Of a stretch of 64,000 nt of DNA, positions 25,775 through 60,715 are shown one piece after another. The DNA lies in NCBI RefSeq assembly GCF_964204645.1, contig NC_134026.1:30910150-30974149 (forward strand), in the 5' to 3' direction. The position numbers and the translations under genes are program-made. Position 1 is the first letter of the stretch. The number at the start of each line of letters is the position of its first letter. Source of the DNA: Tubulanus polymorphus (Eukaryota > Animalia > Nemertea). Below the pieces are notes generated by a model. The model saw nothing but the letters and a program-made list of their open reading frames with translations. It searched no databases and had not been told where the DNA came from.

Positions 25775-25900
25775 ATTATCTCTCCCTCTCTCTTCTCCCT
25801 CTCTCTTCTCTCCTCTCTCTCTCTCTCTCACTCTCTTTTCTCTCTCCCACTCCCCCTGTCTCTCTACTCTCCTCTCTCTCTTCCTCGATTTCTCTCTATT
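25775..25900. repeat. CT-rich low-complexity tract
   Basis: Imperfect (CT)n run. Confidence 0.85.
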
Positions 25901-26159
25901 ACCACGTAATGGCCTCGGAAACTGTCCTTTATTTTTGCTACGGTGTCACCTTGAACGATTGACATTGAACGTTCACCGTTTTGTGACATCAATTTGTTTC
26001 ACGTTAAATACACATGTACTACGAAATCAAATTTATTAATAACTTCCCTCGACTTATCGATAATTAAACAGCATCGACGACATGACACACTGATTTTCAA
26101 GATCAAAGCTGAAATATAAACGTATTAACTGGAGCTATTGAATTCAATACAATCAATTG

Positions 26160-26350
26160 TTGTTCTGTTCTGGATGAAAAGTTGCGGGACATACGTGAGG
26201 AGATTCCCATTCAAATGAATAATGACGTCACTGGAGATTCCATTCTATTAATTCCAGTCGAGCATGTCAGTAATCAGACCGGTCAGTGTGGCCGAGGGGT
26301 TCGGACGATCGCCTTCGACACCGGAGGTTAGAGATCGAATCCTTGCAAGG
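26160..26350 (+). mobile_element. tRNA-derived SINE-like repeat, copy 1
   Basis: A-box-like TGGCCGAGGGG and B-box-like GATCGAATCC in 26281-26345; highly similar to 46810-46990, including about 120 bp upstream. Confidence 0.6.
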
Positions 26351-27980: not shown

Positions 27981-28989
27981 ATGCCGGTCAGAACGTTGTT
28001 GAACGTCTCCTCCGCGGATTGCAAGGTTTACGAGACGGTCCGATGGCTGATGAACGCCTACATTCTCCCACCGGTAATCCTTTGTTGGCTTCACGTTCAG
28101 CTCAATGGTCGTCATCGTTTTCGTACGTTTAAAATACAACAACCATCGTTCTGCATGTTTGCTCACCGCTCTCGCCGTGGTCGACAATCTCTTCCTAATC
28201 GTGCAGTCCACACTCGAGCCGCTGCGCTATTTCTTACTATTCGGCGAACGCGGGATGGCACGATGTTTTCCGTGGCCCGTGAAACCGATAATTTACATTT
28301 TCGGTGATATTCTATAAAGCGTTTTTACTTATGAGAAACTGGTTCATCGTTCTGATACAAGTCGAGCGACTGATCACGATTATTAAGCCGCTAAAGGCCG
28401 GTTTGCCGGAGGGGTATGTTCGTGGCTGCATTTGTATCGGTATGTTTTGGTATGTCTGCCACACTGACTACTATAGAACACCCGGGCCCGGATGTATGCA
28501 TTGGCGGAGAGGTCGTCTTCAGGTGGGTGGCTCTACGAAAAATCTTCGAAAGTATCAACTTTCTGGTCGATCCACTTCTGCGATCGATTCTGCCGACATT
28601 GTTCGTGTTTGTTTCCAACATCATGCTGTTGGTCGTGCTCTACGGGAAGTTGTAGCAAAGCAAGGCAATCACGACTGGTACCAAGGAGAGGGGGAGCAGG
28701 GCTCGAAGCTGGTACCAAGGGGAGCAGGGCTCTTCCGACATGAAGTCGACGAAAATGGTTATTACGATCGATGAGCGTCGTTTTTCTGTTTTCTGGAAAT
28801 TCCGGGTTCGACTTCGAAAATGAGCGAATTGTTTTTTGATAAACCGATAGAGGTCGCCAATGTTTGACGCTCTATCCAATCCATATGACTTCATCAGTTT
28901 TAAACTCACGCGTCAATTTCATTCTATATTTCATCGCCAACGTCAATTTCAGATCGATGACACACGAAATAGTGACTTGTAAGAAATAG
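27981..28989 (+). pseudogene. Frameshifted class A neuropeptide GPCR (FMRFamide/myosuppressin-receptor-like)
   Basis: Successive frames give AYILPPVILC (TM1), LLTALAVVDNLFL (TM2), NWFIVLIQVERLITIIKPLKA (TM3), LLRSILPTLFVFVSNIMLL (TM5), an in-frame TAG at 28653, KSTKMVITI (TM6) and VNFILYFIANVNFR...KK* (TM7). At least four frameshifts. Confidence 0.8.
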
Positions 28990-29998
28990 AAATTTTGATT
29001 GGAAGAATTGTGATAAGTTCCGATTCACTGCGAGTTATTCAGCACTTATTTCAATTCGAAAAGTTCAATTTTATTTCTCATCTTATCATATTAACAAACT
29101 CCTGAGCGACCACGCCCTCAGATTCACCGCGGATATTCTAATCTTTACTTATTCAAATCACATTCAGATTTATTGTTCTATGCAGTGTGTACAAAAAGTT
29201 ACGTTTCGCCAAAAACATTTTGATTTTCTCACGTTTCCTAGAAGCGGGGATAAGATGGATAAGCGACAAACCCGCACTTATTTTCACAGCTGTTTTTGTG
29301 AATCCCGTAGCGTCAAACAAAAGCTGAATTTCCGAGTAAATGTCCACATAAAACAGAGTCGGTTTTTATAGTGTCCTCTCGTCGGGAACTGCGCCTTAAT
29401 TAACACGTTAAGCGGCGTCACTGAGTAAAGGATTATTTACGCCGCTGTTATCGCGGTTAAATCCGTCAACACGATTCTATTCTACTATCATAATCTGGAT
29501 ATCAACATCGTTCTGACAGCCGAATTTTCAACGATTAGCTGCTGCGTAGAGAAGGACATTCATGCAGCCGATCCTTCGCCTATATATAATATCCCATTGA
29601 CACCTACCCAATGCTCAATCTGTCATCAACGCGCACTGTTTTATTGACCGAATTCAAACATCAACTATAATTGGGTGATTAGTGCTGGTACTGGATATAG
29701 GTGATATTTTTAGTCGTAGTCATAAATAGTTTGAATATTCGTAGTGGGAATAAACTGGTCAGTTCAGTGCACATCTAAAACATCATTCATATATACTATA
29801 TTCATCTATAGAGCTGCTGCCGAACCCAGTTGCACAATTCCACAATTCCACAGTTCCACAGTTCCACAGTTCCCGGTTAAAACGTGTCTAAGTACGTTTA
29901 AATGAAATGTTTGTGACGCATGTTCTGTAAGGTGACCCAAATGTAACAACTTGCTTCATTGGATACCTTCAATTAAATTCATATTCTGTAAATCTGGA

Positions 29999-30135
29999 GG
30001 GCCAGTTCCATAGACAGGGCTTAGACTTAAGACCAGTCTACGACAATCTTGGTTATATAGCCTATCTAACAAATAAGACCAGACTTAAGATTTAAGACCA
30101 CTTTTGGTCGTAAGTCTCGACTATGGAACTGGCCC
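29999..30135. mobile_element. MITE with GGGCCAGTT-type TIRs (PIF/Harbinger-like) containing one 47-bp satellite unit
   Basis: gggccagttccatag ... ctatggaactggccc TIRs; internal ttaagaccagtcta...ttggttatatagcctatctaacaa. Confidence 0.7.
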
Positions 30136-30339
30136 CAGGACTATTTATTATCAAACCAATCTCTGCATGTTCATCATGTTTATTATCAACTTCCATTTAT
30201 ATGTAACATATTGCATTTATATCATTGTTCTGGCAGAAATGTTCTTTCGTAGAACAATAAATCTAAATGTGAATTCATTATTATCTGACTATACTTCATG
30301 ATAACCTGCAGTGTAGATTCATTGTGAAATACAGATTGA

Positions 30340-30630
30340 CACATACAATACAATATAAAATCCTACACTGAATATCAATAACAAGAGTCCGAATTTTTTC
30401 TTGAACTCATATTTCTTCAACATTTCGATCATATCCTTTTTAATAGTCTTCAGGAAACGTGAAGATGACTATCAGTATTCCTGAAGATGCTATAAGATTT
30501 AAGATAAAGTCGAAACGTCGAATGACCTACTCATGTTAGTTAGTCAAAGGAAACATTTCAGACTCTTTTTATTCTTAGAGAGTGGATTTTATACCATCTT
30601 TAAAACACGGACTTTAAGTGTTTCACCTGT
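30340..30630. mobile_element. Head-to-head inverted pair of HHR family-1 elements
   Basis: Degenerate minus-strand copy (to about 30456), then plus-strand copy from 30476 tattcCTGAAGAtg...agtcGAAACGTCgaat with the shared 3' tail. Confidence 0.65.
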
Positions 30631-33600
30631 TGCAGTATTTGGCTTCGTGTAAATATCATTAATATAAAAAGTTTGAAATTTGCTTAAATTTTGCATGATT
30701 TTGTTCTCCACAAAAAAAGTGTTGTTTAATGATATTCGAGGTGAATTCGGTTCACTGTATACAGAACCGGTTTCTGCGGTTTTTAATTTACATTCCACGT
30801 CACTACAAATAATTCGATTTCCTTAAAATCAGCTTCAGCTTTTTTCAGAAGTTCGGAACGTTTTCTTTCATCTTCTAAATACTTCATCGGTAAAAATATT
30901 TGGAACAGGAATTTCACTGATGTAGGGAGAATTGAGTGCATTTAAAAGATGTTTCGGATGTAAGGATGTAATTTCAGCATTCTTCTCAGAAGTATATTGT
31001 AAAACCCGACGCTAGGACAAAGGACAACTCCGACTGTGGCCTTTAAATGAAGATTCTTCAGTAATTCTCCTCTTTCTCCTCTCTTTTTCTTCTCTCTCAC
31101 TCCCCTTTCTGCCACTTCCTCCTCGGCATTCAGCCTTCTTCTTAGAAGTATAAATATATACATCGTAAGATAATAGACTCTTGTAAACCGATGCTCGGAC
31201 CAAGGACATCCCACCCGGCAGCGACTGAGAGCAATTGTCATAAATAAGATTGCTGTTTGAGATTGGATGAAATGTGAGTAAAATTTGTCTTGATTGTTTA
31301 TGATTTTTAAGACGAATATGTGTTGTGTGAATTTGTTGTGTTGTGTGAATCTGTACTTGAATCTCACAGGGGTTGATGCCATTAGTGAGTTCACTTACAA
31401 CGGATCCGGTAACAAATCTTCAACTCATGGGTTTTTATAACAAGCATTAACAATCTCACTGCTCCACGAGTAATACGTATTAACGGAATAATATTTACAA
31501 AGAATTCTACTTGTTTTTGCTGAATCGGGCCATAACCTAAAATTCGGCGAAACACAAAAAAAGGATTTTCTAAAGGAAATTCGAGGGTTTTTATTCGTTC
31601 TGGCGTTCTGTCGCCCTCATTTGCATACCAGGAATGTTACGTTGTGGCCCAAATTAGCCACCAGTTTCACATTCAATGAGAAGTATAAACCGTTTTGGAA
31701 GTTTTGAAGTCTGACGATTTCAAATTGATATATTACCATAAACTTCAAAATAAAGCACAAGACAGTGTGAAACGGACAATAGCAAAACATAAATCATTTT
31801 TACCTATATATGATTTTACACTGTGAAAGTTATTAATCATTCTTTTGAATAAAGCATTTGAAATGTGGATTGACGCCAGAACGGTCAAACTACTTATTGT
31901 AAATATGAAAAACCGAAAGAGTTCATAGGAAATGTTATGAAGTTCACAACAAAGGAACACACTATATGTGGGCTTACTTGTGCACAATTGACTCTTTTGA
32001 ATTTTATCTAACCGTTTACTCCACGGTGGGCCATTTTTTCTTCTCAAACTCGTATTCAATTCGGGATCCGTTTTCAGGACATTCGAAACCGTGTCTAATA
32101 AGTCCTTACAATATGAACAAAACAACAGGGTGCATATCAGGCCAATTATTGTAATCATATATAGTGAACCCGGGAATATATTTAACACTTTTAATTCGAT
32201 AAGGTTACGTGGGAAAATTCTAGATTTTACAACGTAGATGTTAAGAGAATGAGGAGGACGGAGGTGGATGAATTTAGCTGCGGGTATGTATGCTATTGAA
32301 TCATAGTTTTATCTGTCTCATTCAATTCTATCCAACTCGACAGTCTACTTGCCGTAGGATTTGCCTTTCCACTATTTCCGTAGATTTACCAAACGAACAC
32401 TTATTTACGCGCGGCACTCTTCTATCCGTTCAGCCACCGGGAGATCATACTTTTTTTGTCCGTAGATTTTTTTTCTTTAAGCTATTAACATTCAAGCAAC
32501 GTTCGTTACCGTTAATAGATGAAATACTAATTCATAAATGTCAGAAAATTGCCCAGTCTTTATCTAGTTTCTAAAGATAACATACATTATTTTCCACTGT
32601 TGTGTGATGTTTCCCTCGGGGCGAACATGAATACCGTATTAACATCACTAAATATCTGCAAGGTGTTTCAATAAGCGACATCTCGCATACAAAAAGTTAA
32701 TGACTCGCATACAAAGTAACGCGATACATGAAATGCTTAAAGGCAGTCGTTTTTACCAGATTAGATTCATGTTCTGAAATTAATAGATTCTTTTCTTGTC
32801 GGTAAAAAGTGATACGTAATCATCTAGATTATTCTGTAGTCGTTTCAACGATCGCATCAAAACGCACATACGCACATAGGTGCAAAACCTTCCAGAATAT
32901 CTCCCAACGAAAACTGCAGGGTCTGGATATAAACTGGTTTCAGTAATATCGATCCTGAATATTGAGTAGATTAGAATAACCTTATATATAATAACTGAGA
33001 CATGTCTTCATCTGACCCTGTAATGCTTCAGCGAGTATAGGTTCGATTACCGACAAATCTAGTTTTGTCAACGACGGCCCAAGAGATATAAAGCATAATC
33101 ATTTAATCACGTGGAAATTACCGTGTATATATACACATTTCACGAGTCTGATGACATAAGGTCAGATAGATGATAGATTCATTTTCATCCTCAGTTTCCT
33201 CTATGTCCTTTACGCGCACTTTCCACACTCTGAATCCATCTTGTTTCGTCTGATAGCATCATCATCCCGACTCCATCGTCTAATTTCCGTTTATCATTCC
33301 AAACTCCGAATACGAGTTCTTCACTTCTTCATCGATTGCGAGGACACACGTGATTACTACGGAGCTAAAATAAAAGCCCAGCTCTACCTGTTGAGGCATA
33401 ATCACTACTCGTTAGAGGCTGAACAGTGACCGCTTTCAAGGATGCTTCACCTTCCTTTTATTGGATTAGATCTAATCAACTAAATGTAATTGGCTGAACT
33501 CCCCCACTTCAGCGCTACCGACCACAAACAATCTTCAATTTAAGAGTCGCTCGCTACAATAATTATATACATTTGGTTCCATCAACAACTACTGGAGTGT

Positions 33601-33998: not shown

Positions 33999-34788
33999 CG
34001 ACAATTGGAAGAATGGTGATAAAGCGACTAATGTCTGAGGAGTCCAAGCTGAAAAAACCGAATGTTCAGTTGCAGGGTTCGGGCAACAGATTGATACTTT
34101 GCTACACCATTTTCTGCATGCGAGATGACCTTTTGCTAAAATACATTACTGGAAACAGGGATCAGATTTACAGCTTTTATCTTCAGTATAACGATAAGGA
34201 TTGGTTGGGGATATATATCTTATAGAATGCAACCCGATAGAAGGCCAGGATAACAGGTCTTAACCGGGTCCCGGGTGTATACATTTAGAACACACCGTGT
34301 TTGAAGATCTTCAGAAGACGTTACTCTTACCCCAGATAAATCTCTCAAAGATCGTCGTCGATATCTCGTAAAGGTCTTATTCGTATAGATATCTTTAGAT
34401 CGACTATACTTATCAACACGTTTGACCTTGTGCTCGCGAACCCGTGAATAATCTATACACACGACCCGCGACAAAATATAGACGTGCGAACATTGATTAT
34501 AACATTACGGGTGACAACACTCGTCTCAACTTACATTTTCCGCTATTGATTCCTATCCTGATCATGATTAGATAATTAATTGAACAGATATAATTGAATA
34601 GATCGAGTCTCGTTTTCTGTTATATTGATGGTTGTTACGGCGTTATGAGATTTATTCACACAGAAACCGTGATTTCAGGCACCAACATCCAGTTGCACAG
34701 TGACCAGTAAAGTTTGACAATATCATAAAAGTTGTTATACTGAAATACACGAAAAGTCAGATAAACTACATTAGCTCAAGGAATACAG

Positions 34789-34895
34789 TATTCCTGAAGA
34801 TGACTATTATGATACAGTCTAAACCTCGAATAAACTACACTAGCTCAAGGAAACATTTCAGACCTTTTTATTTTCAGTGTGCTGGGATTTTATAT
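34789..34895 (+). mobile_element. Dispersed HHR family-1 copy (degenerate core)
   Basis: tattcCTGAAGAtgact...agtcTAAACCTCgaataaactacactagctcaagg plus tail. Confidence 0.7.
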
Positions 34896-35056
34896 TGGGT
34901 TCGAATGTACGGCATTTGCCTTTGTAATTGAAATCTTATGAATTTAATATTCAAAATCTCATCAATTGAAATTTACATCGCAGAACGAAAAGACTGATTC
35001 AGATATAATATCTGATAGAAACTCTACTGGGTAATATAAAACATGAAAATAATTAG

Positions 35057-35100
35057 TATTCCTGAAGATGACTACTAGAATAAAGTCGAAACGTTGAATA
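35057..35100 (+). ncRNA. Minimal type I hammerhead ribozyme motif (family 1), intact core; second copy with broken stem II at 35126-35169
   Basis: TATTC-CTGAAGA-T-GACT-actagaataa-AGTC-GAAAC-GTT-GAATA. Confidence 0.7.
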
Positions 35101-35167
35101 AACTACACTAGCTCAAGGAATACAGTATTCCTGAAGATCACCATCATGATTAAGTCGAAACGTTGAA

Positions 35168-35250
35168 CAAATAAAAGGAAACTTGAGTAAATTACAAATA
35201 AAAGGAAACTTGAGTAAATTACAAATAGAAGGAAACTTGAGTAAATTACT
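35168..35250. repeat. 27-bp tandem repeat x3
   Basis: caaataaaaggaaacttgagtaaatta repeated three times. Confidence 0.85.
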
Positions 35251-36124
35251 TAAGGAATGATTTCGGATTAACTTCTATTTTCAGTGTTTGATTTTATATA
35301 TTTATTACTGTCCACATTGACGATGATTTCTTCCGGTGTTTAAAAGTTTAATTTTGTGATTTTTGAGGAATAGATTCAGGGGCTGCAGTTGCTCAAAAGT
35401 TGGTTAGAGGTCACCAGTGGATAGCTGACATAGTGACAAATAAAGGTCCATTATTACTATGGTATTTATGGTATTTATGCTATGAGCGATCATCTCTTGA
35501 GTTGCTCATAAACTGTAGCCCGTGCTTTTAATCTTAAATTTGTACATAATGGGTTTAAATCATTATTATACTGTCTGCTAATTTTCCTTGCTGAATCGTG
35601 TCTGCCTTTATTTTCGTTTCATCTTAAAAACACCCTTTCAATCATCTCACCTTCTCATCATCACTGATGACGTCATTTAAAGCCTTGTAAAGTACGACTA
35701 AAGTCTAATTGGTCCTGCGGATATTTTGAAAGATCTCTGATTTTGCTCGACACGCGGTTGCGGCGTTGCGAGCAGACTGTACGCGTCTGGAATGTCGCCA
35801 TGCAACGTTATCTAGCAGCGGTAGACTTTCACCGTGAAACCGCCTGATCGCCATTTCATTCAAACTGTCACTGATTCTAATGGAATATTAAGACTAGGAT
35901 TACAACGAGTTAAAAGTACAAAAGCCTTCACATAGGATTCATTCAAATTCATTGCATTTTCATCTTTGTTGCTGGCTGTCAAATAAGGTATAGGATCGCG
36001 CTTACCCACTCGGAAATATGATAAGATAATTTCAACTGACAGGTAAGTGTGAGGGTGGTTGGTGTTTTGACAGATTGTTCAGTTTAATCCAAATATTATA
36101 GAAATATAGAAATAATATAAAATG

Positions 36125-36483
36125 TCTGCGCACTAAGAACGAAAACATTCTAAAATATTTCCATGAGTTAATTACTTAGTTCAACGTTTCGACTTTATCT
36201 TGATAGTCATCTTCAAGAATAAGTGTTATCACAAAAACTATGAGATATATATCACAATCCAGAACGAAGAGACTAATTTAGATATAAGATCTGATATACA
36301 AACTATTAGGGGTAGTATATAAAACACAAAAATACTTTGTATTCCTGAAGATGAGTATCGGGATAAAGTCGAAACGTTGAATAAACTACGCATTAGCTCG
36401 AGGAAACATTTCGGACTCTTGTTTAGTGAGGGATATTCTATATTATCTTGACGGCACGGATTCAGAGTGTTTCATCAATGGTT
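36125..36483. mobile_element. Head-to-head inverted pair of HHR family-1 elements with a spacer of about 120 bp
   Basis: Minus HHR about 36178-36221 (TTGAAGA core) and plus HHR 36340-36383 (CTGAAGA...GAAACGTTGAATA). The spacer resembles 34980-35056. Confidence 0.7.
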
Positions 36484-38061
36484 AAACATAAAAATATTTT
36501 AGTCCAAAGTGTTTTAGTGAGACCCATTATTCCCGTAGGAGAGTTTATTAGGATAGATCTCGAGGAAACATTTCTTACTAAATGTTTATTCTTAGCGGTG
36601 GATGTTAAATTATCTTTACAACGCGGACTCAAAGTGTTTCATCGATGTCTAAATATAGAAATATTTTGCTTCGATTAATTCATGACTGAAAAGCGATGAA
36701 TGACGATCTTTTACATCGTTAAAGGGCTCGCGTCGTAAAACATTGATTACTAACATCGTTTAAAATACACAATACAAAAATAGCACAATGCATGATTCCA
36801 AAATGAGTTGCCATAATAATTATCAACAAATAAAAAGAGTTTTCTTAAAATCCATATAAATCTATGGGGGATGGGATTTTCTAGCCCACAAATCAATATA
36901 ACACTGAAATAATTCTCAAATTCATTCCAACCTAACGTTTCCATACACACTCACCGGTGGCAGACTATACGGGGCGCAGATAACATTAATTGCAAAGACA
37001 AATATTTGATTTGGAACATTCCAAACATCCTTCAGTTATAATTGAATTTCTATCATCTATTTAAAAATCGTTCGGAAATTATGATGACTTTCGAATTTTG
37101 TATGAGTAACATATATTTCTACTTCGATCAGATATGTTTGGATCCTGTTCAACGGTTCTTGCATTTTTTTCAAAATTCTCAAGAGGGAGCATCCCCAAAT
37201 CCCAATTTGCGCTTACGGCACTCGCGGTCGCGTGCCTATTGTAAAACTAGGCCTCGGATGTTTTTGGCCCCACAATTCCTCGATGCGTCCCTGGAATGAA
37301 CAGATTTTTACATCGTAAATAAATGATATTTATTGTGTTTGATCCAGGCGTGAGTAATTTGTGGGTGAGCTCGTTTTGGTTTGGTTGGAACTGAACGGGG
37401 TGTGGGGCTCTGCGCGGTAAATGTTAGCGAATGTGATGCTCAGATAAAAATGGCCTCTAAATGATTCCCGTTGATCGAAGGTCTAAATAAATGGACAAAT
37501 TCGACCATGTATCATGTTGAGATAGCTTTGAGTTTTATGATTTTCATTTTTCATAACAAAACACGAGTGCAACAAAATAATTTTGGGGGATCCCGCCGAA
37601 CCCACCCCTTGATTAGATTCTAATTGCCATCTATAACCGTGTATGTTCAACTAGCATCATTCTGACTGTAAGCTCTAGTATTCTATATAAACCATGATCG
37701 CCTATATTCAGGATAAACATGGATTTTTCATGCCTTATCTTAGATATAAAACAGCGTCAAAAATTCACGAGCAGCCGCGAACGATAATAGATACTGATAA
37801 AATAATTCGATGCGACCGATTTCAATATCATCCACACACTGTCTCTATCGTTATTGGAAATATTCACAGACAGATGTTTAGTTGAATGTATGATCAACTG
37901 CTCGACCGTGTTCATTATTCTCACTTGCTTTTACGATTTAGAAATAAAGCGTTTAGCCGAACACCAGTTAATGTTCGCACAAACAATGCTGAATTATATT
38001 CATAACACGTTTTCTCTTTTATATTTGGGAATTAATTTCACATATTGACCATCGTTTTAAT

Positions 38062-38172
38062 CAGGATCCAGTTCTACAGTTCTGGACCCAGTTCTACTCT
38101 GTACCCGGTTCTACTCTGTGCCCAGTTCTACTCTGTGCCCAGTTCCACAGTGCTAAACCCAGTTCCACAGTT
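38062..38172. repeat. About 17-bp tandem repeat derived from MITE terminus (ccagttctactctgtgc)
   Basis: About six diverged copies; a similar 8-bp (ttccacag)n expansion lies at 29826-29875. Confidence 0.7.
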
Positions 38173-38876
38173 CTAAGTTAAGATTTGACTCAGTAATGAA
38201 ACACAGATACCCAAACGATATGATTACTGAAGTCAATCCAATAGTCTTAGATCAGTTGGGAATTCAAATTCATTCCCTTGCTGTATATATCATATCCACT
38301 GTTTTTGTAATAACATGTTGTTGAAACCTGGCAATCGATTTTCTACTGGCGATGATGAATTTAATATGAGGTTTAGAGTTATAAGTTAGTAGTGTCAGGG
38401 GTTAACCAGCATCGAATACTAAAACCTTTGACAACACGTGTTATGAATTACTCTGACAGAAATAACAGTCAAGCATACACAGCATTATGAAATAATGTTT
38501 GGTGTTTATTAGATTAATGCAAGTTTGAACAAAGCAATATGAAATCACACGTTTTGAATAAAAGGAGTTTGAATTGTTTATTCTGGGCTGTTATGAATCT
38601 TATTTACGCGTCATCTGATCAATTATAAGTCAGTCAGCCTTTACAGGCTATACGAAGACATAGAATTTAGAAAATAGGCTAAATAAACTACACTAGCTCA
38701 AGGAATAATACATTATTCCTGAAGACAACTATACGGATATAGTCTAAACGTTGAAGTGAACTACTAGTTCAAAAACATTTCAGACTCTTTTTATTCTCAG
38801 CGTGCAGGGATTTTGTATCGTAGGTTCAGGAATTACAGGTTACAACATTATTCCTGAAGATTACAGGTTACAACAT

Positions 38877-39265
38877 TATTCCTGAAGATGACTATTAGGA
38901 TAAAGTCGAAACGTTGAATAAACTACACTAGCTCAAGGAATACAGTATTCCTGAAGATGACTATTAGAATATAGTCGACACGTTGAATAAACTACACTAG
39001 CTCAAGGAATACAGTATTCCTGAAGATGACTATTAGAATATAGTCGACACGTTGAATAAACTACACTAGCTCAAGGAATACAGTATTCCTGAAGATGACT
39101 ATTAGAATATAGTCGACACGTTGAATAAACTACACTAGCTCAAGGAATACAGTATTCCTGAAGATGACTATTAGAATATAGTCGACACGTTGAATAAACT
39201 ACACTAGCTCAAGGAATACAGTATTCCTGAAGATGACTATTAGGATATAGTCGACACGTCGGATA
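38877..39265 (+). repeat. Tandem array A: six 69-bp units, each with a hammerhead ribozyme motif (1 intact core, 5 with GAAAC->GACAC)
   Basis: Units start (tattcctgaagatgac) at 38877, 38946, 39015, 39084, 39153, 39222. Confidence 0.9.
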
Positions 39266-41606
39266 CACTATTAGTGTTAGAAAAAAAATATTCTCAGAGT
39301 GTTTCATCAATGGTTATTGAAACAAGGCTTCAGCTGAAAGTCTTCGACTAATTAATCTATTTTTTCGTGCGATGAATTTGATTATTTATTTATGAGTAAT
39401 GAGAAAATACATATTGAGCAAGTTTTTATGCAAGTTTATATGAAGACAAATAGAGGAGAAATGCTATCAATTACGAGCGACCGTGGTATCAAGGGAGAGG
39501 GGAGAGGAGGGAGAGGGAGAGGCAGAGAGAGAGGGAAATATTATCAACAATATTAATGATGTTATCTCAGATAACAGGTGTAGATAAAAATGATGTTTTT
39601 CTTATTAATATGTTAAGAGGTCATTTGTAAAGTACGTAGGCTTTCTCAGGGATGTGAAGGGCTGATTATTAATCAGTTTTCTTCTGTGCTTCTAACAAGC
39701 ATCCATTTGCACAGTTTACATATCCATGACAGGAGAACGGGCCAAAAATTGGGAACAAACTGAATTCATCATAGATACATTTACTTTGATTTAAACATAT
39801 TCGGAAATTAGATTTTCTTAAAATGATTCTTGAAGACGAACGAGAGCTATTTTCGGAGTTCCGAAGTCTGGAACCTTTAAGTTTTATTATGAATTGTTTA
39901 TGAAATCATTCTCTTTGTGGCTATATTAATGCGTTATGTTTGAACAGAACATTCGCGTGTGGAATTTTTCTGAATTTATTCCTAAGACTCAAATTAAACA
40001 ACTCTGTGGTAATTTATAGTTTTTACTCTGTGTTTAATTGGATTTTTTCCCTACAAAACGCTGTTTAGTTTTAATTGCATCCTGGTAATTACAGATGAGC
40101 TAACGGTTTAAATCGTGTCAGGTCTCTGATGCTGATAACGCGGTAACTTTTTGAGATCTGGAACCAGTTTTCACGAATATAGTTTTACTAAAAATAATCG
40201 ATTTAATTTCATTTAAATCGATTTTTAGAGTTAACGATGTTTTTTTCTGTAACTAACCCAAGGGTCTATTTTCACGGAAAAGTTAAGATATAATCTTAGT
40301 TCTAATTGTTATTGTTGACCTCATAATTCCAACGAGGACAAAAAAAAACTTAAACTTAAGCATTTCAAGCTTGTGTTAAACATTTCCGCGAGGCTGGATG
40401 CAGGGAGCAGTCGCGCAGAGTTAATCTCAAATTTGTGGTTTATCTGCTATCGAATAATTCATCTAATCAATGTCGACAACCAATCCAAATGAAACCCAAC
40501 CCGACTCAATTCAGAAAAACAAGATTTCATTTAAATTTGCGCAACATGAAATCGAACATATGTCAATTTGATAAGACCAAATTGATATCAGAATCTTCGG
40601 CATCTGCAACAATTGTGAAAATTGCAGCTTCTATAAGCAAATATGAGTTCGGCGTCAGAGAGAAACCGGGATGGAAAGTAACGTATTTACACGGGTTCAC
40701 TTCCAGCCAACTAACGGTCATTATTTCTAGTTTGATTGCACGCGTCACGCAACTCGTCGCAGGCAATCACGTGACTCCATGTGCCGGCTTCTTACGGTAG
40801 CAAAATCACGAAGAAACATTTTAGTGTTTTCTAATCTAGAAAAAAAAAAACAATTAGATTAGAAACACTTCCCGAATTCTTCGAGGAGGGAAATATGCTT
40901 TTGATTTAAGATTATTTAATTATTGCCCCTTAAATTTCCGATCAACTACGATTGAAACACGTAGTATTGTACTTTTATTAGAAATATGATCGTTTTAATA
41001 TTATGAGTTCTGAAACTATTGTATTCATGGAATGGTAGGGTAATTGTTATTAGTGAATCACCACACGACTGACTGGTCACCAACACTGATCACTCGTCAT
41101 GTACAACACAAATCTCTAAGCTACGTCTGCCCAATCACTCAGTAAACATGTTTTTGGGTTCGAGTCCTGTTAGGGTGTTTATGCTTTGGTCTGATGATTT
41201 CTTGTTTTTTTGGTGGAATAATTTCCTGGAATATACGGCCGTGCATGTAATGCGCTTTCAGCAAAGTTATGATAAACTCCACTAGACTTTGTGTATCAGA
41301 TGTACTTATACAATTTGTATGTTTGGACGTAAATGTTTGTTTCAATTTTCGCCCAGTTTAACTTTGTTAATTCACCTCTTAATAATCGGGGTACACTTAC
41401 TCGTAATGTTTCCGATAATCAAAAGCAAACTGACGATTAACATGCATCGGTTTAAAGCAGCACCTGCTATCTTCAGTCGGTCTGTTCGGTTACGGTCTAA
41501 AGAGAATTACATCTTCATAAACATTGATGAAACACTCTCAGTCCATGCTGTAAGGATTATGTAGACAGTCCCAATAAGAAGGAACAAAAAATGCATACAT
41601 ATTTAT

Positions 41607-42271
41607 TATTACATGTTTCGTCTATATTCTAATAGTCATCTTCAGGAATACTGTATTCCTTGAGCTAGTGTAGTTTATTCAACGTTTCGACTTTATCCTA
41701 ATAGTCATCTTCAGGAATACTGTATTCCTTGAGTTAGTGTAGTTTATTCAACGTTTCGACTTTATCCTAATAGTCATCTTCAGGAATACTGTATTCCTTG
41801 AGCTAGTGTAGTTTATTCAACGTTTCGACTTTATCCTAATAGTCATCTTCAGGAATACTGTATTCCTTGAGCTAGTGTAGTTTATTCAACGTTTCGACTA
41901 TATCCTAATAGTCATCTTCAGGAATACTGTATTCCTTGAGCTAGTGTAGTTTATTCAACGTTTCGACTTTATTCTAATATTCATCTTCAGGAATACTGTA
42001 TTCCTTGAGCTAGTGTAGTTTATTCAACGTTTCGACTTTATCCTAATAGTCATCTTCAGGAATACTGTATTCCTTGAGCTAGTGTAGTTTATTCAACGTT
42101 TCGACTTTATTCTAATAGTCATCTTCAGGAATACTGTATTCCTTGAGCTAGTGTAGTTTATTCAACGTTTCGACTATATCCTAATAGTCATCTTCAGGAA
42201 TACTGTATTCCTTGAGCTAGTGTAGTTTATTCAACGATTCGACTACATTCTAATAGTCATCTTCAGCAATA
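41607..42271 (-). ncRNA. Tandem array B: ten 69-bp units, eight with intact minimal type I hammerhead cores
   Basis: Minus strand TATTC-CTGAAGA-T-GACT-loop-AGTC-GAAAC-GTT-GAATA with left ends at 41676, 41745, 41814, 41883, 41952 (stem II mismatch), 42021, 42090, 42159; both terminal units degenerate. Confidence 0.8.
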
Positions 42272-44596
42272 CTCAGAATTCCTTCTTCAGTATTTCTGTC
42301 GGTGATTATATCCATCATACATCCCAAGTTTTCTTGTAAATGAATATGCAAATATTCATCTTAATTACTGTAGATGACTATCGTAATATTCGGACTCTAT
42401 CATCTTTCTTATTGTGAGATTTCATATTAACTTCATCTTCATTCAACTAAAAACCTAACTGTGTTATTCACCTGTATTCCGTGAATAAAAACTGCTCTGT
42501 GAGAAATACTACACCACGCAATAACTACACGAACTGCAGCGAAAGACCCTCATTTTGTCGTAGTATCATTTGTATGGTTTTCCTGGAATTAGAATTGTCC
42601 ATCGAGTAGCTGACATTTCCTCGAGATTGAAAAATAGGAATCAGACCCGTTAATTAAGCGTGTAATTCCAAGCGTATCATCGCTCAGAGCTCTTTAGCAC
42701 CGCAGCCGCTCCAGCTCTTTAACACCGCTCAAACTTACATTTCAAACGTTGCGTTTGAAGTTTTGATATTATTGATAACGACAAGAACTTACAGTTCGGA
42801 TGAAGCGTATGGTATGAATTCTCTTTACCTGAGAGCTCACTCGCAGACAAACATCAATAAATGCAATGATGCGTCGACATCAAATAGTTACAACGTTTTC
42901 AATTTTGATAATTGTTTTTGCCCGAACTGAATTCTGTTAACATCAAGCACCTGCAGCTCAACAGGTTGTGCGTATACTCTAACTGCGCGGTCAGTCAGAA
43001 TAAGTTAGTTTTCAGGATCTAAATTTGGCTCTAGGTTTCCGAAAGGTGTGACCGGTGAGTTTACAAAGGGAGCAATCAAGTAAATAAAAGAGGTGATCAT
43101 TCCTATTCTAAGAAAAGAAAAATATTTTCAAATGAACTGGTTCTAACTTTATATTCAAACTTAATCTGAAAACCGTTGGTATTTTTCCCTGTTTAACCGT
43201 GTTGAATGGAAACCTAAAACTCGAGTGCTCTTATAGTGATAAACTCGGTTCTACATAGAGTGGGACCCAGGGGTTAACTCGTGTATCGGTTCTACAGAGA
43301 GTGGGACCCAGGGGTTAACTCGATTGACTTGAAGTTGAGTTAACCGCAGAGTTTGAGTCACCAGCTCTGTTAAAACCGGCCCCTGAAAACAGTAAAAGCT
43401 GGGTCCAGTTTTATAGACAGTAATTCGCTAACAAAAATAGAATCAGTCCAATATAATGTACAATACACGAAAGCTCTACTCGGCCGTCAGGTAATTGGAT
43501 ACATCGATTTGAAGTTGTATTCATCTTTGTGATCTTTTTGATGTCGGTTCTTCGTTCAAAACACACACAACTTCAGTGACTGAATTAAAGGTTCCACGAA
43601 TTGATTCAGATTAAAGAAAACAAAATTTATCCCTCTATTTTTTGCCGAAGTCAATTTTTTCTCTACGCGTCAGAAACTGATAGAAAGTCGCGCGGATGGT
43701 CATTGATTAAAAAGGATCGTCACTCGCACGATGCTCAAATGAATCAATTTTCTCAGTATTTTTTGAAATTGAAATTGAAATTGAAATTTTTTTCATTACG
43801 ACGTTACATTATTGGACGATATAATAAGTATGATTAAACGAAGAAAAATGAAACAGGATAATGAGGCTACACGGAGAGACTGAAACAGTCTATCTAATTC
43901 TATTTGTATTTTCGATCCGACCATCATCGGTATAGAATATGGAGCTATTTTTTCGAAGAAGTTTCGCTCTTAGAGATTTGTAAGATGAAAGGGGGAGCAC
44001 GAGGATGCATAGAGATGAATGTATTCTCGAGTTGTCTGTGTTCAGTGTAGTTTTTTTTGCTGCTGTTAATTACGGTCGCTGCCCTGCGGCGTTGTCTCAC
44101 TGACAATAACTGATCCGCAGGAAATTATGCCTAGCGTAAGAAAAAGCGTCCACGACAACAATCAATCCACGCGACAAAAAAAAACTGAAATATTTATCAC
44201 GTGTGTTTTTTTACGTTACTGTGGCAAGTAAGGATCAGTCAGGTTAAGTTATGCGTAATGAGGGAAAGCCTCATTTTATCTATCAGGATTTAAAAGTTAC
44301 CGATACGAAATGATGTTGTTATTCCCTTGATTGATGACATCTAGAATTAGTTTGCAACATAAATATTGCATTACGGTAATATCTTGTTTCGTAATACTAA
44401 ATTTCGGCATTTTCACAGTTAAATGGTTTATAAACTGACGGGTTTTGTCCCTTTATACTCGCAGGAATATGAAGCCCAAATTCTCTCTTCAGACACGCGG
44501 CCCAGGTTGTTGTAGTGTGAAGTGTGGACGATCAGTTTTTATTTTCAATTGAAAATGTATCAAGTGAAGTTCTGAACACATGTTAGGTGAAGATAA

Positions 44597-44861
44597 GGGG
44601 TTTGCAGGATTCAGGCTGAGGGTTTGCAGGATTCAGGCTGAGGGTTTGCAGGATTCAGGCTGAGGGGTTGCAGGATTCAGGCTGACGGGTTGCAGGATTC
44701 AGGCTGAGAGGGTTTGCAGGATTCAGGCTGGAGGGGGTCGCAGGATTCAGGCTGAGGGTTTGCAGGATTCAGGCTGAGGGTTTGCAGGATTCAGGCTGAG
44801 GGTTTGCAGGATTCAGGCTGGAGAGTTTGCAGGATTCAGGCTGAGGGTTTGCAGGATTCAG
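44597..44861. repeat. 22-bp minisatellite, 12 copies
   Basis: gggtttgcaggattcaggctga repeated. Confidence 0.95.
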
Positions 44862-46809
44862 ATCTCATCGCAGCAATCTCTACTCGCATTCAGATTTCAT
44901 CGCCATCATTTTTCTCTCATTAGTTGGGAAAGTATATTTATCTTGAAAGAAAAGCTTTCCAACACGTGGGGGAATAATGATTGTGAATTAAAAACCTCTC
45001 GACCAGCAGTGCCGTCTTTCATATCGACTCCGACAAATCATCGTGAATTTCATTAATAAAATCTAAAATGCTGTCTTAACGCCGACAGATAACGGCGGTT
45101 AAGGGGCGTTTTATCTGCGCATAGATAACCAACGCTTCGATAAGAAAACTTCCGTATAACAATCCGTTATTTACTTACCTAAATCTAAGTGCAATTATCT
45201 TGACGTAATTGCTGATTATAGCTTAAATCAACCGGTGTCAGGCTGTTTAAATTCTGCTATTTATTGTGAACAGTGATTGAACACTGCGTGTTATAAAGAT
45301 GATATTGAAGATCCCACCATTAGCTCAAGGAAACATTTCGAACTCTTATCGTTCTTAGTGTAGGATTTTATATCATCTTTACAACACAGATTCAGAGAAT
45401 GTTTCATCTGTCGAGACTTTTAGGATATAATCGAAAAAGCCATTAGCTCAAGGAACCATTTCTGACTTTTTAGTTATACGTGGTGTTAGATTGTATATAG
45501 ATCTTAGTGATAACCATTGACGAGACGCTATTCGTGTTGTGACGATATTATAACGAGAATCCCACAACATTGATCCTTTTTAATAATTTGCTTTTAGCTT
45601 GTAACTGTTTCTATGTTATTTCATTTTCTGACTTAATTTTTTTCGTCATTATTGTGAGATTCTCGTTGCATTTTTGAAAGATTATTAAGGGAAGTATTGT
45701 CATACATTCTCCTATACGATTGTCTCAGCATCCACTGTATTTTCAATCAGGAATATGACCACGGTTCGCGTCTGGGGCTCCTGTTGACAGAAAGAATAGT
45801 TACTCCGGCCGAATCAATCGCTGCCGTGATTGCCGTTCCATTTATTTCGTGGCATGGTAATTATATTTAGTGACGACGTGTGGAATCCCACTGAGGACTG
45901 GCGTATAAAAGAAATCTAAGTGACCACAAAAACAAACGTTCCCGCCGGAACACTGACCAAAATATCGTTAGACGCACGGATTTATGGACGAATATTGCTG
46001 CTGCTTTCCCTAAGAGACGCAAAATAGCAATTCGTATAAATGTAACGCTGTAATATATATAAGAAAGCTGAAGTAAACTCGGTTAACAGAAGACCTGTTT
46101 TTTACCCCGGACTCAGATTTACCGCACCTGGCAATATATACAACAAGTTTCCTGACTCCAATTTATGAACGATCCTTGTTCCGAGTGTCCGACTGGAATT
46201 CGGGTGTTACCTCGGACATAGTGTAATAGTCCCGTGAGATCCGAGGCAAGCGGAGTATAGTTCACGAGGATGTACCTGAATAACTTTATATTTCCAGTTA
46301 TGAATAATTCACAGTACTGAATAACTGTATCACATTGTAATATTTAAGTGGTACTTTAAAATCATTGATTTCAATGCGATAGAATAATACAATATTGATG
46401 CAATGCATCGGATGTCCGCACTGTGCTGAACCACTTTGCATATTGCATTTTTGACATGTTGTTTTGAATCTAAAATTTCTCGCATGATTTGCAACCGTTC
46501 TCCCCTCGGATAGTTAAATGATACCCCGAGGTTATTCTGAGATAATCCCCGATGAATTTTGTTTAATCTATCGTTGTGAAAATACTCGTCAAAAAGCGGT
46601 TTGAACGTTGTTACAGTTGGTGGCGTAATTAGCTTAGTTAGGTTGAATTTGATATGAAAAATACTAAAAATGTCCCCCTGGAAATGTCCATAAAGTGTCG
46701 AAGTTTCACACTGAGTTTTTATGATAATCAAATTAAGTAAAGATTTATGTAAGATGAACAAGAAACGCGAAATTTTTTAACTAGATAGAATTCTATAGAA
46801 TTGACTTGT

Positions 46810-49300: not shown

Positions 49301-50005
49301 ACTTCACTTGTTATTCTTAGAGCATACACGTCATCCAAGCTCAATTGAATTAAAAAGCTAAAAGCAATCCATCGGATTGGTAAAATTGCACACGCCTAAT
49401 AAGCCCCAAGCGGGCTATGTCAAGTCGGTATTGTCTTGTAAATGAACTTAAATAAATGCAAAAATTCGTCTCGTTTATTCAGTGAAACTTCATTAAGTCT
49501 ACTGCTTTATAAGTATGTTCTAACCGTGGTCTGCGCGTCGCTGCGACACAGAGAGAGCGAGAGAGAGAGTGAGAGACGACGGATCGAACATTCGATGAGC
49601 AATCATCAATTTCACCAAGCCGCGCTCCCTGGATAACCTATATTGCCATAATCCATCATTACATCAACGTTCTTTGACGTTTGCTGAAATCGGTTAAAGT
49701 CAATATTTGATTCGCTATACGTGTATATTGTCTGTATATATGTATAACTAGCTTGAGTATAATAGAATTAGGAATACATAAGACCCCTTTAATAACGTCA
49801 GTCAATTCTCTTCAAACAACAGACGAAGCCGTTGAAAACCATTAGTAAACGTTTGTTCGTAAATAATATTTAAATAGTTTTGACGTTTTCTAATTTCAGA
49901 TGATCTAAAGATTGCCGTCTAATCACCAGCCGATATCAGATTCGGCGTTCAGAAAATGTATGATAATCTTCCGGCGTCTTCGTTCGTTCGAACTGACAGC
50001 GACAG

Positions 50006-51107
50006 ATGAAGGCAGCAGGTGACAGTCATAACAAGTTATATATGGAAATACATACATTTAGTGAACGCTACGAACCGAATTCAAACTCGACGACATTTTC
50101 ACAAAATGCTTCATTCGACGTTTACATCGCCGAAAAAGAAACGGATTTATTCGCAAACGAAACCGCCTTGAACGTTACGTTGAATCTGACGTTAAACAAG
50201 GAGAATTTTCATTTACCGACGGCCGTTGTTTCCGGTATGTTCCTGTCGATTATAATCAGTATGACTATCGGAGGGAATGTTCTCGTCTTGTTGGCGGTGT
50301 TCGTCAACTCTCATCTCAGGAGTACCACTAATATATTCATAGTTAATCTAGCAGTCGCCGATCTCTTACTAGGCACTGCCGTCTTACCTTTTTCGGCCAG
50401 CAAAGAAGTTATAAATTATTGGGCATTTGGTCAGACTTTCTGTGATATTTGGGCCGCGGTTGATGTTTTGTGTTGTACGGCGTCCATTATGAGTTTATGC
50501 GTGATAAGTATCGATCGATATATCGGAGTTACTCGACCGTTACAACACTCGACGATAATGACAGAAAAAAGAGCAATAATTATAGTATTATGTGTATGGA
50601 TAGCATCTATAGCAATCTGTGTAGCACCCCTCGTCGGTTGGAAGGAACCTCCCGATCCTAACCCGTTGGTGTGTACGGTCACCGAACAATTAGGATATGT
50701 GATATTTTCAGTCTCGTGGTCGTTTTATATTCCCCTGATCATAATTCTGATCGTTTACTTCCGGATCTATCGCGAGGCCTTGAAACAATCGCGTTTCCTA
50801 GCAACCGGAATTAAAACGTCGAAAGGTGGCGCTAAAGACGATGCAGCTGCGACGATTACGTTACGAGTTCATACCGGTGGTACCCGCGGCGGTACCGGCG
50901 GTAACGCGGGTGCTAGGGATCAGCCCTATACCAGTTCAAGTTCCAGCGAGCATTCGGACAGTTCTGGTAGAAAGTATCACTCTAGACTGACCCTAGCCGG
51001 TAAAATGGCTAAGTTTAAAAGGGAGAAGAAAGCCGCACAAACGTTAGGAATAGTCGTCGGTGTTTTCATCCTGTGTTGGTTCCCGTTCTTTTTTATTCTA
51101 CCTTTAG
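50006..51107 (+). CDS. ADRA1: Alpha-1 adrenergic receptor-like GPCR, first coding exon (TM1-TM6)
   Basis: LAVADLLLGTAVLPFSA, FCDIWAAVDVLCCTASIMSLCVISIDRYIGV, TLRVH and KFKREKKAAQTLGIVVGVFILCWFPFFFILPLG closely follow alpha-1 adrenoceptor motifs. Donor G|GTGAGT at 51108; acceptor tttcag at 49894-49899 indicates an upstream UTR exon. Confidence 0.88.
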
Positions 51108-52176
51108 GTGAGTATAACACGTGAGATATTTGTGAAATTGGCACAAACCGCTTCAAACCTGATGAGCGTGCCCCGTTTGAACTGATCCGCATAAGACAAA
51201 TTACCACAAATACCAAAACCAGTAATTTCTCTCCAGCGCAGAAGCCAATTAGCCATCAGTAAGTCACGAATGATTTTTGTACCATTTTTCTGCCGGGAAG
51301 AAATTCTATATCGGTCGCGAGGGATTAGATGTAACCCTCCCGGACCGAACGCAAAATGGTGTCATGATTCCCAAACTCTTTGCGGCGATTACTTTGTTTC
51401 TCTTAATTCCTATCACGCAGTTGGCAAATTGACCAGATCGTCGTAATTGAGCTACATTTCGCCGTCGAAATGGTCTCATTCTATATCGCGGCCCCTTTAA
51501 CCGCTACTTTCTTAGTTTCCCCCCTCCCAATATCACCATTAAGTACAGTAATGCGGAATTCAGTATTTCAAAAAATGTGACTAATTATAGAATGATTTAA
51601 AAAACGACAGGACAAAAGTACTGGCTGGCAAACCATTTCGTTAGGGTTCTTTTTGTCGCCAAAATGAGCCTTTAGTTTTTACCTTTCGAACGGATAAGAT
51701 TTTGTAGACTTTAATCGTCGGGATGTCACCCGGGTGCCTTGTTATTGCTTCGATTTGCTTCACAAGCTTTGAAAAAAGGACATAAAAGAAAAAATGAAAT
51801 TAGTCTGGGATGCTAGTATTCTATCGACCAGCGAACCGCTCTCTCTCTCGAGTGTGAATAATTGGTTTAACTTAACGTCAGAAATCTGTTTGTCAATCTA
51901 ATATACAAATTCAATCGAAAACACAGGAATATCTGCAGGGCGATGTTTGCCAACTAATATTGTCTGTACAGTGATTTGTAGTGGGTTTTACCGCGACAAC
52001 AACAATATATGGACATAAACTAACAAACCATAATTATATTTCATTATACACTGTATATATTTATGCGTTCAAATCACATACGTCTAGACGCTGGGCCGCG
52101 TGTTCTGTTTGTTTGCTGTTTTATTAAGTGAATCTCCCTAGATTCGATTGATGTTGCATCCAAAATCATCGAGCTA

Positions 52177-52322: not shown

Positions 52323-52807
52323 TCTTGTTACTAGAATGCTAACCCGACTACCCGGGAAAGAGTGCGTTTACGTGTCACAGATTATCTCAGATGTAAAGGG
52401 CTTCAGTTGTTGATATTTCAATCGTCAGTTTGAGTTGATTTGATCGAAGTCCTCGCGTAGCCGTGCGGTGTCTACCTCAAAACTTTGTAAATCGGGAATT
52501 CGATGGATTTATGGAAGTTTTCCCGTCGCGATCTGAATTTAACGAATTGATATTTTCTGTTGAGTTGGTCTTTACAAAAATCTACAAACAAGAGCGGAGT
52601 TTATATTCAAAAGCAGAACGTTCGGTTTCTGAGTAAAGACCCGCTTCATTAGGTGTGGAGAAAGTCTAAATAATGTATGAATTATTTATAGCGGGTTTTC
52701 ATATATCTATGGTATGGTTGTTCTACAATTCAGGCAACAGTCCAGCTCATTCCCTAGTATTGTAGATACCAGTGGGAGGAGGCCATAAAACTTAAAACTT
52801 TGAAAAC

Positions 52808-52940
52808 CAATTGATGAAACACTCCAAGTCGTAGAGATAATATAAATCCCGTGTTAGGAATAAAAACAGTTCGAAATGTTTCCTTGGGCTGAAATTCACT
52901 CGATGTTTTGACTTTATCCAAATAGTCATCTTCAGGAATA
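52808..52940 (-). mobile_element. Dispersed HHR family-1 copy (degenerate core) in the ADRA1 intron
   Basis: Minus strand tattcCTGAAGAtgactatttggataaagtcAAAACATC plus shared tail ...gagtgtttcatcaattgg. Confidence 0.7.
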
Positions 52941-53533
52941 CAGGACTATAATAGGATACAGGAAATCATTGATAAAACACTGATGATGAGTCAGTCAGTT
53001 AGTATAGAAAAATTGAAAATATACCAAGAAAACATTTTCGGTATCAATTTCGCTTCCCGAGTGTGGGATTTTTCTATTATTTCTATATAAAATCAAAGCT
53101 TCAGGCCGTACAATCGTTTCGCAATTTGTGAATCCTTAAAGATACATACAAAAATAGTTTGTAAAGGTGTTGAGCAGTATTTCATCCTAGCCGCAGAACC
53201 GAGTTGGCGTTATAACTGTCGCATTGACCTCGGGGAACCAAGGTCTCCTGATGTAATTCCTGATTAGCATTGCTCTTCACACTCAGTAGCTGTGTAAATA
53301 TCGGCCAGGATGTGCATATGAGCCACATCTGTGCCGCGTCCTTTCATGGGAACTAGAAATATTGAATATTTCTGTAAAAGGCTTCCATTATAGATTTACA
53401 TTAATTCAGCGACAAGGTAAATTTATATTTACCTTTTAGCAGGAAGGGATTAATCGCCTTATAAACACATTGAATATAAACCTCGCTTGCCGCATACAGT
53501 TTACACGGTCCGAGAGCTGGCTGTCTCGCTGTA

Positions 53534-60274: not shown

Positions 60275-60390
60275 TATTCCTGAAAATGACTATGATTTTG
60301 ATAAAGTCGATTTTCGGACTATTTTTCCTGCTGACAGTGGGATTATCGATATTAATATTCCTCGCGGATAGAATGTTTCATCAATGGTTG
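60275..60390 (+). mobile_element. Truncated HHR family-1 copy
   Basis: tattcCTGAAAAtgact...aagtcga then the shared tail ending gtttcatcaatggtt. Confidence 0.6.
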
Positions 60391-60715
60391 TTAGAAAATG
60401 ATAGTAATCAGAGCTGAACCGTGAACTTTATAGTTTTTACCCCCGGGGGTTAACTCAATTAAAAATGAATTGTGTAGTAAACTCAATTAAAAATGAATCA
60501 AATTTACCCGTGGCGTTGTGTTTAGCCCCTTGGTCGAGTTTTATGGGATTGTTATACGTATTAACTTTAACCCGGGGGTTTAAACTGAATTCCACTTCCA
60601 GTCTATTAGAATAAAACCCCTGAAGTTTATGACTCGCCCTGAGTAGTCAAACATAACTATTGATACAAATACAAATGGTTGTTTTTGCTGCCGCGACTCA
60701 AAAACACCCGTAGGA

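Follow-up and report, generated by a model that had tools for sequence, protein, structure and literature searches.

The tandem array at 41607-42271, on the minus strand of the 64,000-nt (64-kb) stretch of Tubulanus polymorphus DNA analysed here (the window), has the layout of a hammerhead ribozyme. This layout occupies the 5′ end of a dispersed family of ~165 nt; the arrays end in the tail of this family, and their interior units are young and their end units older. We consider it probable that the array arose by tandem expansion, with a 69-bp period, of a minimal type I hammerhead likely derived from the end of a Penelope-like element (PLE), that it has grown and been homogenised mainly as DNA, and that it cuts poorly.

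A minimal hammerhead in a 69-nt register

TRF reported a repeat at 41615-42273 with a period of 69, 9.6 copies and 96% matches. Split on the minus strand, the array consists of nine full 69-nt periods and a tenth unit that diverges after GAAACA. Its main features are:

41607-42271, minus strand: main array, ten minimal type I hammerhead cores in a 69-nt register
42271, 42202 ... 41650, minus strand: unit starts of the main array
42164, 42095, 42026, 41957, 41888, 41819, 41750 and 41681, minus strand: predicted cuts after position 17
41640-41664, minus strand: one of nine identical unit junctions, quasi-palindrome GGAAUA-CAG-UAUUCC

Core letters (CUGAAGA-U...GAAA-CG-UU) are intact in units 2-9, that is, in eight of the ten units. 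In unit 1, A15.1>U is accompanied by a mismatch in helix I, unit 10 combines G at position 17 with a broken helix II, and unit 5 keeps its core with a mismatched helix II; the full structural descriptor was passed by 7/10 units. Helix I is TATTC/GAATA and helix II is GACT/AGTC, the latter reaching 6 bp in units 2 and 6. In addition, the units contain an extra U between A9 and G10.1 and an ACGT palindrome. A preliminary description, made from the letters of the window, had claimed ten 69-bp units with eight intact cores, and the TRF result, the unit split and the comparison of the descriptor with shuffles bear this out; the stems (with the longer stem II in some units), the extra nucleotide and the palindrome were also as it had claimed. 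A core of the form CUGANGA...GAAA with a site obeying the NUH cleavage rule (PMC3884650) was present in eight of the ten units.

In the accessible text of Cervera and de la Pena 2014 (PMC4209133), the minimal hammerheads of PLEs are characterized by a helix I of 4-5 bp, a helix II opening with G10.1-C11.1, an extra nucleotide after A9 and palindromic positions 15.2-16.2. The main array agrees with every feature listed there, sharing the core, a 5-bp helix I, the extra nucleotide between 9 and 10.1, the G10.1-C11.1 pair and the 15.2-16.2 palindrome. Its helix II of 4-6 bp differs from that of the schistosome families in the same source (7-8 bp).

The preliminary description had put forward a motif-model search as a check. 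Rfam detected no hammerhead in the window at the gathering threshold or at E<=10, and its sole match within 38500-42600 was a chance miRNA (E 7.5); a generic minimal-hammerhead descriptor matched the window nine times (three loci, with seven matches in the main array) and had no match in 60 dinucleotide shuffles. An array-derived pattern also gave nine window matches and none in 100 shuffles.

The same core pattern with other stems was found in metagenomes, from which 105 loci were fetched (~570 estimated). These loci represent other families and were used only for motif covariation. Among 95 distinct metagenome motifs, the two helix II pairs that the pattern leaves unspecified, 4 and 5, were present in 72 and 67 motifs, compared with shuffle means of 53 and 38 (relatedness uncontrolled). 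Because the helix I register of these loci was partly picked by fit, we relied on the helix II test alone; the 12 loci in the main array's own register showed a weak helix I excess (29, against a mean of 23.2 and a maximum of 30). No RT or GIY-YIG match was detected in the 120 of 336 long metagenome frames that were scanned, and viral contigs gave no matches. Since the layout matches and helix II covaries across unrelated metagenome loci, the sequences support assignment of the main-array motif to a real hammerhead type, the PLE-type minimal type I, and the tie to Penelope-like elements made in the preliminary description gains support from the same layout and covarying stems.

A dispersed family with Penelope-like anatomy

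The array had been described as a satellite. It is indeed tandem, but it does not stand alone, being one of ten window loci of an abundant family (36 profile matches at these loci, with a profile built from those same copies). A second array, eight further loci and a common 3′ tail had been overlooked. Single copies start at helix I and continue for ~120 nt to a common end motif. The family is represented in the window as follows:

41510-41606, minus strand: degenerate host-element 3′ tail of the main array, 66-79% identical to other tails, ending in the conserved family end motif
38873- or 38877-39270, plus strand: second array, 5.8 units, 96.6% identical to the main array
39271-39322, plus strand: shortened tail of the second array, carrying the family end motif
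38682-38822, plus strand: older degenerate copy upstream of the second array, variant junction with 8-nt palindrome arms
35051-35182, plus strand: two-unit array, a young first unit (97% to the main array) and a diverged second unit
34745-34904, plus strand: partial unit, junction, degenerate C17 core and part of the tail
36107-36652: head-to-head pair, with a copy on the minus strand (36107-36231), a full hammerhead and tail on the plus strand (36333-36489) and a second tail piece (36522-36652)
30293-30633: head-to-head pair, with a copy on the minus strand (30293-30465) and a copy on the plus strand (30467-30633) with intact core letters and GUC
23148-23316, minus strand: old single copy, hammerhead and full tail, GUC, stem II AUG frame open
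52797-52954, minus strand: old single copy, hammerhead and tail, C17
60170-60399: internally deleted copy on the plus strand (60267-60399), with an inverted tail piece (60170-60276) joined at its 5′ end
45306-45505, plus strand: two family tail pieces without a hammerhead core

In the second array, five GACAC (A14C) cores come after a single intact one, and the final unit carries C17. Both arrays end in a remnant of the family tail. Local duplications, which show slippage, lie right at family copies (28 bp twice at 38832-38889 and 27 bp three times at 35167-35249).

Several anatomical features point to a PLE. The tail ends 117-137 nt past the AUG formed by A9-U-G10.1 in four near-complete copies (in two deleted copies, 100 and 79 nt past it), this AUG precedes the predicted cut site by 28 nt, and its frame is open for at least 43 codons in three old copies. 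In the Poseidon PLE of Anolis carolinensis, PAc (Frangieh et al. 2024, PMC11167929, available text), the ORF starts with an AUG at the beginning of stem II, the cut falls 26 nt past it and reverse transcription starts 111-118 nt in; its flanks are AT-rich and its insertion 3′ ends lie slightly more than 110 nt downstream, as in our family. PAc is autonomous, whereas the ORF of the family spans at most ~45 codons in old copies and, in the array form, is closed by a stop before codon 10 is passed. In addition, inverted 5′-end pieces were clear at 3/10 family loci and weak at three more. An inverted 5′-truncated copy at the 5′ end is a hallmark of PLEs (PMC8557442), and PLE minimal hammerheads are likewise mostly dispersed and occur in opposite-strand pairs (PMC4209133).

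No Pfam match to RT or GIY-YIG was found in window frames (17 and 137 frames in overlapping sets, of at least 70 aa and with some simple-repeat frames set aside). A profile of the 46-aa stem II frame, a weak test, retrieved none of 51 candidates at E<=10. Neither a convincing target-site duplication nor terminal inverted repeats were seen at the five family copies examined. The family likely derives from the terminal segment of a Penelope-like retroelement; as no PLE ORF is linked to it, this parentage is read from its anatomy. Our literature search returned no Penelope report for Tubulanus polymorphus, and for nemertean hammerhead ribozymes it turned up PMC10886601.

Many copies begin with YAG right before helix I (e.g., 38874-38877), and the same YAG forms the loop of the junction hairpin. 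This is the position at which the Penelope intron of Drosophila virilis ends (PMC4209133), and the YAG could be a relic 3′ splice site.

The origin of the 69-nt unit can be traced to some extent from its junction, in which the quasi-palindrome is predicted to engage C3 and the 5′ strand of helix I in the following unit (pairing probability 1.0 in folding). An identical junction occurs at four loci in both orientations. The window contains two versions, the 38932 type at four loci and the 38697 type, each with an insertion that perfects the palindrome with the helix I strand. AACATT is common to the tail and to the 5′ flank of the long form, suggesting that joining at these microhomologies gave the short unit, and the junction insertions look like the product of a template switch. 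A coding unit, considered because 69 nt equals 23 codons, was rejected, the stem II AUG frame being stopped in every array unit.

GUU is a weaker cleavage triplet than GUC, and A14 is essential for the hammerhead. Position 17 is C in 5/26 cores and U in 20/26, and all five C17 cores sit in diverged copies or in an array's final unit. C17-G1.1 forms a CpG, which makes GUC the likely ancestral triplet and GUU its probable product by CpG decay. The change C17>U closes the stem II AUG frame within 10 codons in 19/20 U17 cores and lengthens the palindrome, which makes an A14-U17 pair possible. Measured rates for GUU versus GUC were not found in the available parts of PMC3884650 and PMC7151607.

Sequencing contigs extended these observations beyond the window. 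In the DNA-like run X1, summed contig depth was 19956-54325 over the main array and 26-37 in unique flanks, and 1730 contigs lay on one 181-bp stretch containing one unit; summed depth is a sign of high abundance and not a copy number. The unit is present at hundreds of loci or more, and there are probably thousands of units. Among the X1 contig ends listed, 176 and 51 contigs begin at the base of helix I, mostly after CAG and with unrelated flanks (agreement 0.41-0.42), and 115, 66 and 46 contigs exit the unit into tail-like sequence; none of the 18 groups of loose ends listed lies at the cut site. Joins from the tail end to a next hammerhead were found in eight X2 contigs and seven X3 contigs, together with one joint seen in X1-X3. 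A tandem form of ~160 nt therefore exists, near the known retrozyme size. The majority form in X1 has the 6-bp helix II (83% of depth). Genome-wide, only four variants reach about 2% or more, two of them CpG changes at C11.1 and G12 (1.6-3%); given so few variants, we take the family to be young, with core and linker equally uniform.

Cleavage, amplification and competing explanations

The compact half of a double hammerhead needs 13 pairs, all of which are present in 6/8 neighbour pairs examined. The active half-dimer fold was predicted to lie 8.9-9.3 kcal/mol above the ensemble, a cost that stems from the junction hairpin, which occupies C3 and the 5′ strand of helix I. With shuffled linkers the median cost was 6.1 kcal/mol (15/300 were as costly as the natural linker), and removal of the arm and U17 in silico reduced it to 2.7-5.5 kcal/mol. 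In whole-array folding, helix I probability was at most 0.014 even without the junction arm; since these controls fail to restore helix I, the hairpin argument carries limited weight. The folding model discriminates poorly and omits core contacts and protein help. An isolated motif with a 6-bp helix II folded into helices I and II (-7.6 kcal/mol), a second isolated motif folded otherwise (-5.2 kcal/mol), and motif folding z-scores were near -1. The circular 69-nt monomer was predicted to be barely structured (MFE only -3.5 kcal/mol), and the junction hairpin, which forms 3 nt from its partner, was predicted in linear multimers too.

In the accessible literature, PLE hammerheads can be protein-assisted and that of the anole PLE cuts only with protein (PMC11167929), PLE minimal hammerheads have low activity as dimers or trimers (PMC4209133), one of nine Xenopus dimers was cleaved in vitro (bioRxiv 2026.07.22.740005), and self-blocking sequence is known in functional plant retrozyme and viroid circles (PMC7229834). 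The array is predicted to cut poorly, and in these models folding lowers the chance of cleavage without removing it. Efficient cutting into 69-nt monomers that circularise, as the preliminary description had imagined, finds no support in any of the results; the predicted junction hairpin, a GUU that looks like decayed GUC, the A14C units, the missing covariation and the -3.5 kcal/mol circle speak against it but do not refute it.

No covariation of stems was detected within the family. Across 14 distinct copies, 85.0% of pairs formed, compared with 84.8% after shuffling, and there was one double change. In addition, five adjacent units of the second array have A14C in common. At this position A accounts for 9187/9478 of the depth, which makes A14C a local variant; its presence in five neighbouring units indicates that dead cores amplify in place.

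Variation among units follows a pattern. Blocks of adjacent units have private variants in common. Interior units differ by 0-1 letters from the majority (derived from 13 interior units) outside three polymorphic sites, and single copies differ from it by 3-8 letters. The 3′-most unit is the most diverged in 3/3 multi-unit loci, and the 5′-most unit of the main array also departs from the majority, by three letters. Units across loci are 96-98% identical, while between the main-array tail and other tails the identity is 66-79%. Arrays that are young in the middle and old at the ends agree with unequal exchange and gene conversion; the 3′ bias of divergence would also fit reverse transcription adding young units to old copies.

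The course of events that we favor would run as follows. Single copies would have been pasted by a PLE reverse transcriptase/endonuclease acting in trans on uncut RNA, starting ~120 nt past the hammerhead. A short-cut between the two AACATT microhomologies, in the tail and in the helix I flank, may then have produced the short unit, and a template-switch insertion may have perfected the junction palindrome. The junction hairpin and C17>U at the CpG (with A14 paired to U17) would disfavor the active double hammerhead. Finally, unequal exchange and gene conversion, perhaps with re-mobilised uncut RNA of unit plus tail, would have multiplied the unit until it occupied hundreds of loci, with a copy number probably in the thousands. 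Against this explanation stands the observation that the unit is very uniform genome-wide, core-intact and, in its majority form, provided with the stronger 6-bp helix II. The lack of a linked PLE ORF, the low helix I probability in whole-array folding even without the arm, the self-blocking of functional plant circles and the diverged 3′-most units also count against it.

The intact cores also speak for an active 69-nt retrozyme, which we regard as unlikely. Here read-through RNA would be cut, probably with help from a PLE protein, monomers would be joined into circles that the junction hairpin locks, and resident family copies would gain young units upstream of their old tails through rolling-circle reverse transcription. 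Intact core letters in 8/10 units and in nearly all contig depth, the 6-bp helix II of the majority, near-identical units in front of a much less conserved tail and the diverged 3′-most units at all three multi-unit loci are what it would predict, and the anole PLE, whose hammerhead needs protein, nicks at ATT and can target its own pLTR (PMC11167929); ATT is present in the helix I 5′ strand. However, linear multimers, too, are predicted to form the hairpin, whose strand lies 3 nt from its partner, GUU is likely derived, five dead A14C units have been amplified, the family lacks covariation, and the predicted circle contrasts with the highly self-paired circles known (PMC7229834, available text). 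The 5′-most unit of the main array is also diverged, as unequal exchange predicts, and no 5′ ends occur at the cut site among those listed. A specific version, in which the junction hairpin locks a 69-nt hammerhead circle, a Penelope protein opens it and the circle homes into older copies of its parent element, we hold to be more doubtful still. If true, it would account for the thousands of near-identical units that keep their cores intact upstream of tails long decayed, and the circle would be among the smallest natural retrozymes.

Slightly less credible again is a linear, non-autonomous PLE RNA, (69-nt unit)n plus tail, copied uncut, with array length set mostly at reverse transcription by template jumps at the junction hairpin. 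The identical junction at four loci in both orientations, the pile-up of 5′ ends at CAG, the hairpin loop (among those listed), the 3′ exits into tail, and the fact that PLE insertion in vitro needs no cleavage, anole hammerhead mutants transposing normally (PMC11167929), all agree with such an RNA. Old, deleted tails behind young units are not expected from a single recent insertion, however, and neighbouring blocks of units carry private variants.

We see very little prospect for a DNA element (Helitron-type, or a MITE with internal tandem repeats) with the hammerhead as a captured passenger and the inverted arrays as terminal repeats. The two arrays are inverted, 2.4 kb apart, and no PLE protein was found; yet the 2.3 kb between them is at single-copy depth (28-37, versus ~20000 and more), so it is not a mobile interior, and we rejected the idea that the arrays are the terminal repeats of one element. 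Moreover, each array has its own tail, the family also occurs as single and head-to-head copies, and terminal inverted repeats and target duplications were lacking at five copies. Lastly, a chance resemblance in an ordinary minisatellite, for which the lack of an Rfam match, the lack of covariation in the family and z-scores near -1 might be cited, is refuted by the absence of descriptor matches in 60 shuffles and by a layout with all five published minimal-motif features, and unrelated loci also have this core, with stems that covary.

Known systems and other features of the window

The status of the array depends on which definition of retrozyme is used. Animal non-LTR retrozymes as operationally defined by Li, Clavereau and Pollet (bioRxiv 10.64898/2026.07.22.740005) include tandem minimal motifs with units of 51-972 bp, for which an origin from PLE ends followed by local amplification is proposed; the definition asks for a complete canonical or minimal type I motif in at least two consecutive units and a motif MFE below -5 kcal/mol. 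Such motifs occupy consecutive units 2-4 and 6-9 of the main array, and the two that were folded gave -7.6 and -5.2 kcal/mol, which places the array within this class. The hosts in the available part of that source are 31 vertebrates, three insects and one coral, whereas ours is a nemertean, and here the ~160-nt parent form, the junction and the C17>U change are traceable.

The retrozymes of coral, mussel and axolotl (Cervera and de la Pena 2020, PMC7229834, available text) have canonical hammerheads, units of 150-450 nt and highly self-paired circles observed by northern blot. The main array resembles them in being tandem, non-coding and low in GC, in its type I hammerhead and in PLEs as the proposed helper. 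It differs in its minimal motif (no helix III in the monomer), its 69-nt unit and a predicted circle that is nearly unstructured, and it falls outside a class defined by a canonical motif with a 150-450 nt monomer and a highly self-paired circle. The unit had been called much smaller than usual; this holds against 150-450 nt but not against 51-972 bp. A 69-bp unit is short, yet precedented, as tandem hammerhead repeats of such size have already been described (bioRxiv 10.64898/2026.07.22.740005). Compared with the PLE minimal hammerheads in the accessible text of PMC4209133, the motif here also occurs head-to-tail at 69 nt, in a family without covariation.

A single window thus reads from a PLE end to a hammerhead satellite: a ~160-nt parent, a putative microhomology short-cut, a palindrome-perfecting junction, a likely GUC-to-GUU change and amplification of dead cores. 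This bears on whether hammerhead cleavage aids the spread of PLE-derived repeats or whether the motif rides along. The natural variants (C17 or U17, helix II of 4 or 6 bp, with or without the junction arm, A14C) form a ready test series, and a 69-nt circle, if found, would show how small a ribozyme circle encoded in a genome can be.

Another minimal-hammerhead-like motif, unrelated to that of the family, lies at 62410-62470 (minus strand), with a CUGACGA core, helix I CACAC/GUGUG, an AUAU palindrome and an AUC site; its helix II is imperfect and its folding z-score is 0.11. Possibly it represents another PLE family. Among the metagenome loci, one of another family (L038:718-927, minus strand) has two of the same minimal cores 180 nt apart, forming a retrozyme-sized tandem.

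Other repeats include minisatellites at 11639-12250 (71 bp), 12706-12902 (44 bp), 44598-44861 (22 bp) and 60716-61056 (43 bp), none of which passes the hammerhead descriptor. Two 47-bp tandem arrays (18199-18425 and 24073-24649) have consensus units that look reverse-complementary, so that this array family, too, occurs in either orientation. An interspersed repeat of another kind, very high in copy number and containing 17-bp subrepeats, is present at 38060-38193 and 35380-35470 (summed depth of X1 bins 14600-30500).

Host genes were also recognised. An alpha-1 adrenergic-like GPCR is encoded at 49997-51124 (plus strand); 82% of the length of its frame (49997-51121) matches a Tubulanus polymorphus protein at 100% identity, and the next named relative, from Lineus longissimus, is 77% identical. 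A second rhodopsin-family GPCR lies at 9790-10803 (plus strand), exons with CUB, MAM and LDLa domains at 1616-7677 (minus strand) and a frame weakly similar to CYYR1/WBP-1 at 76-1206 (minus strand).
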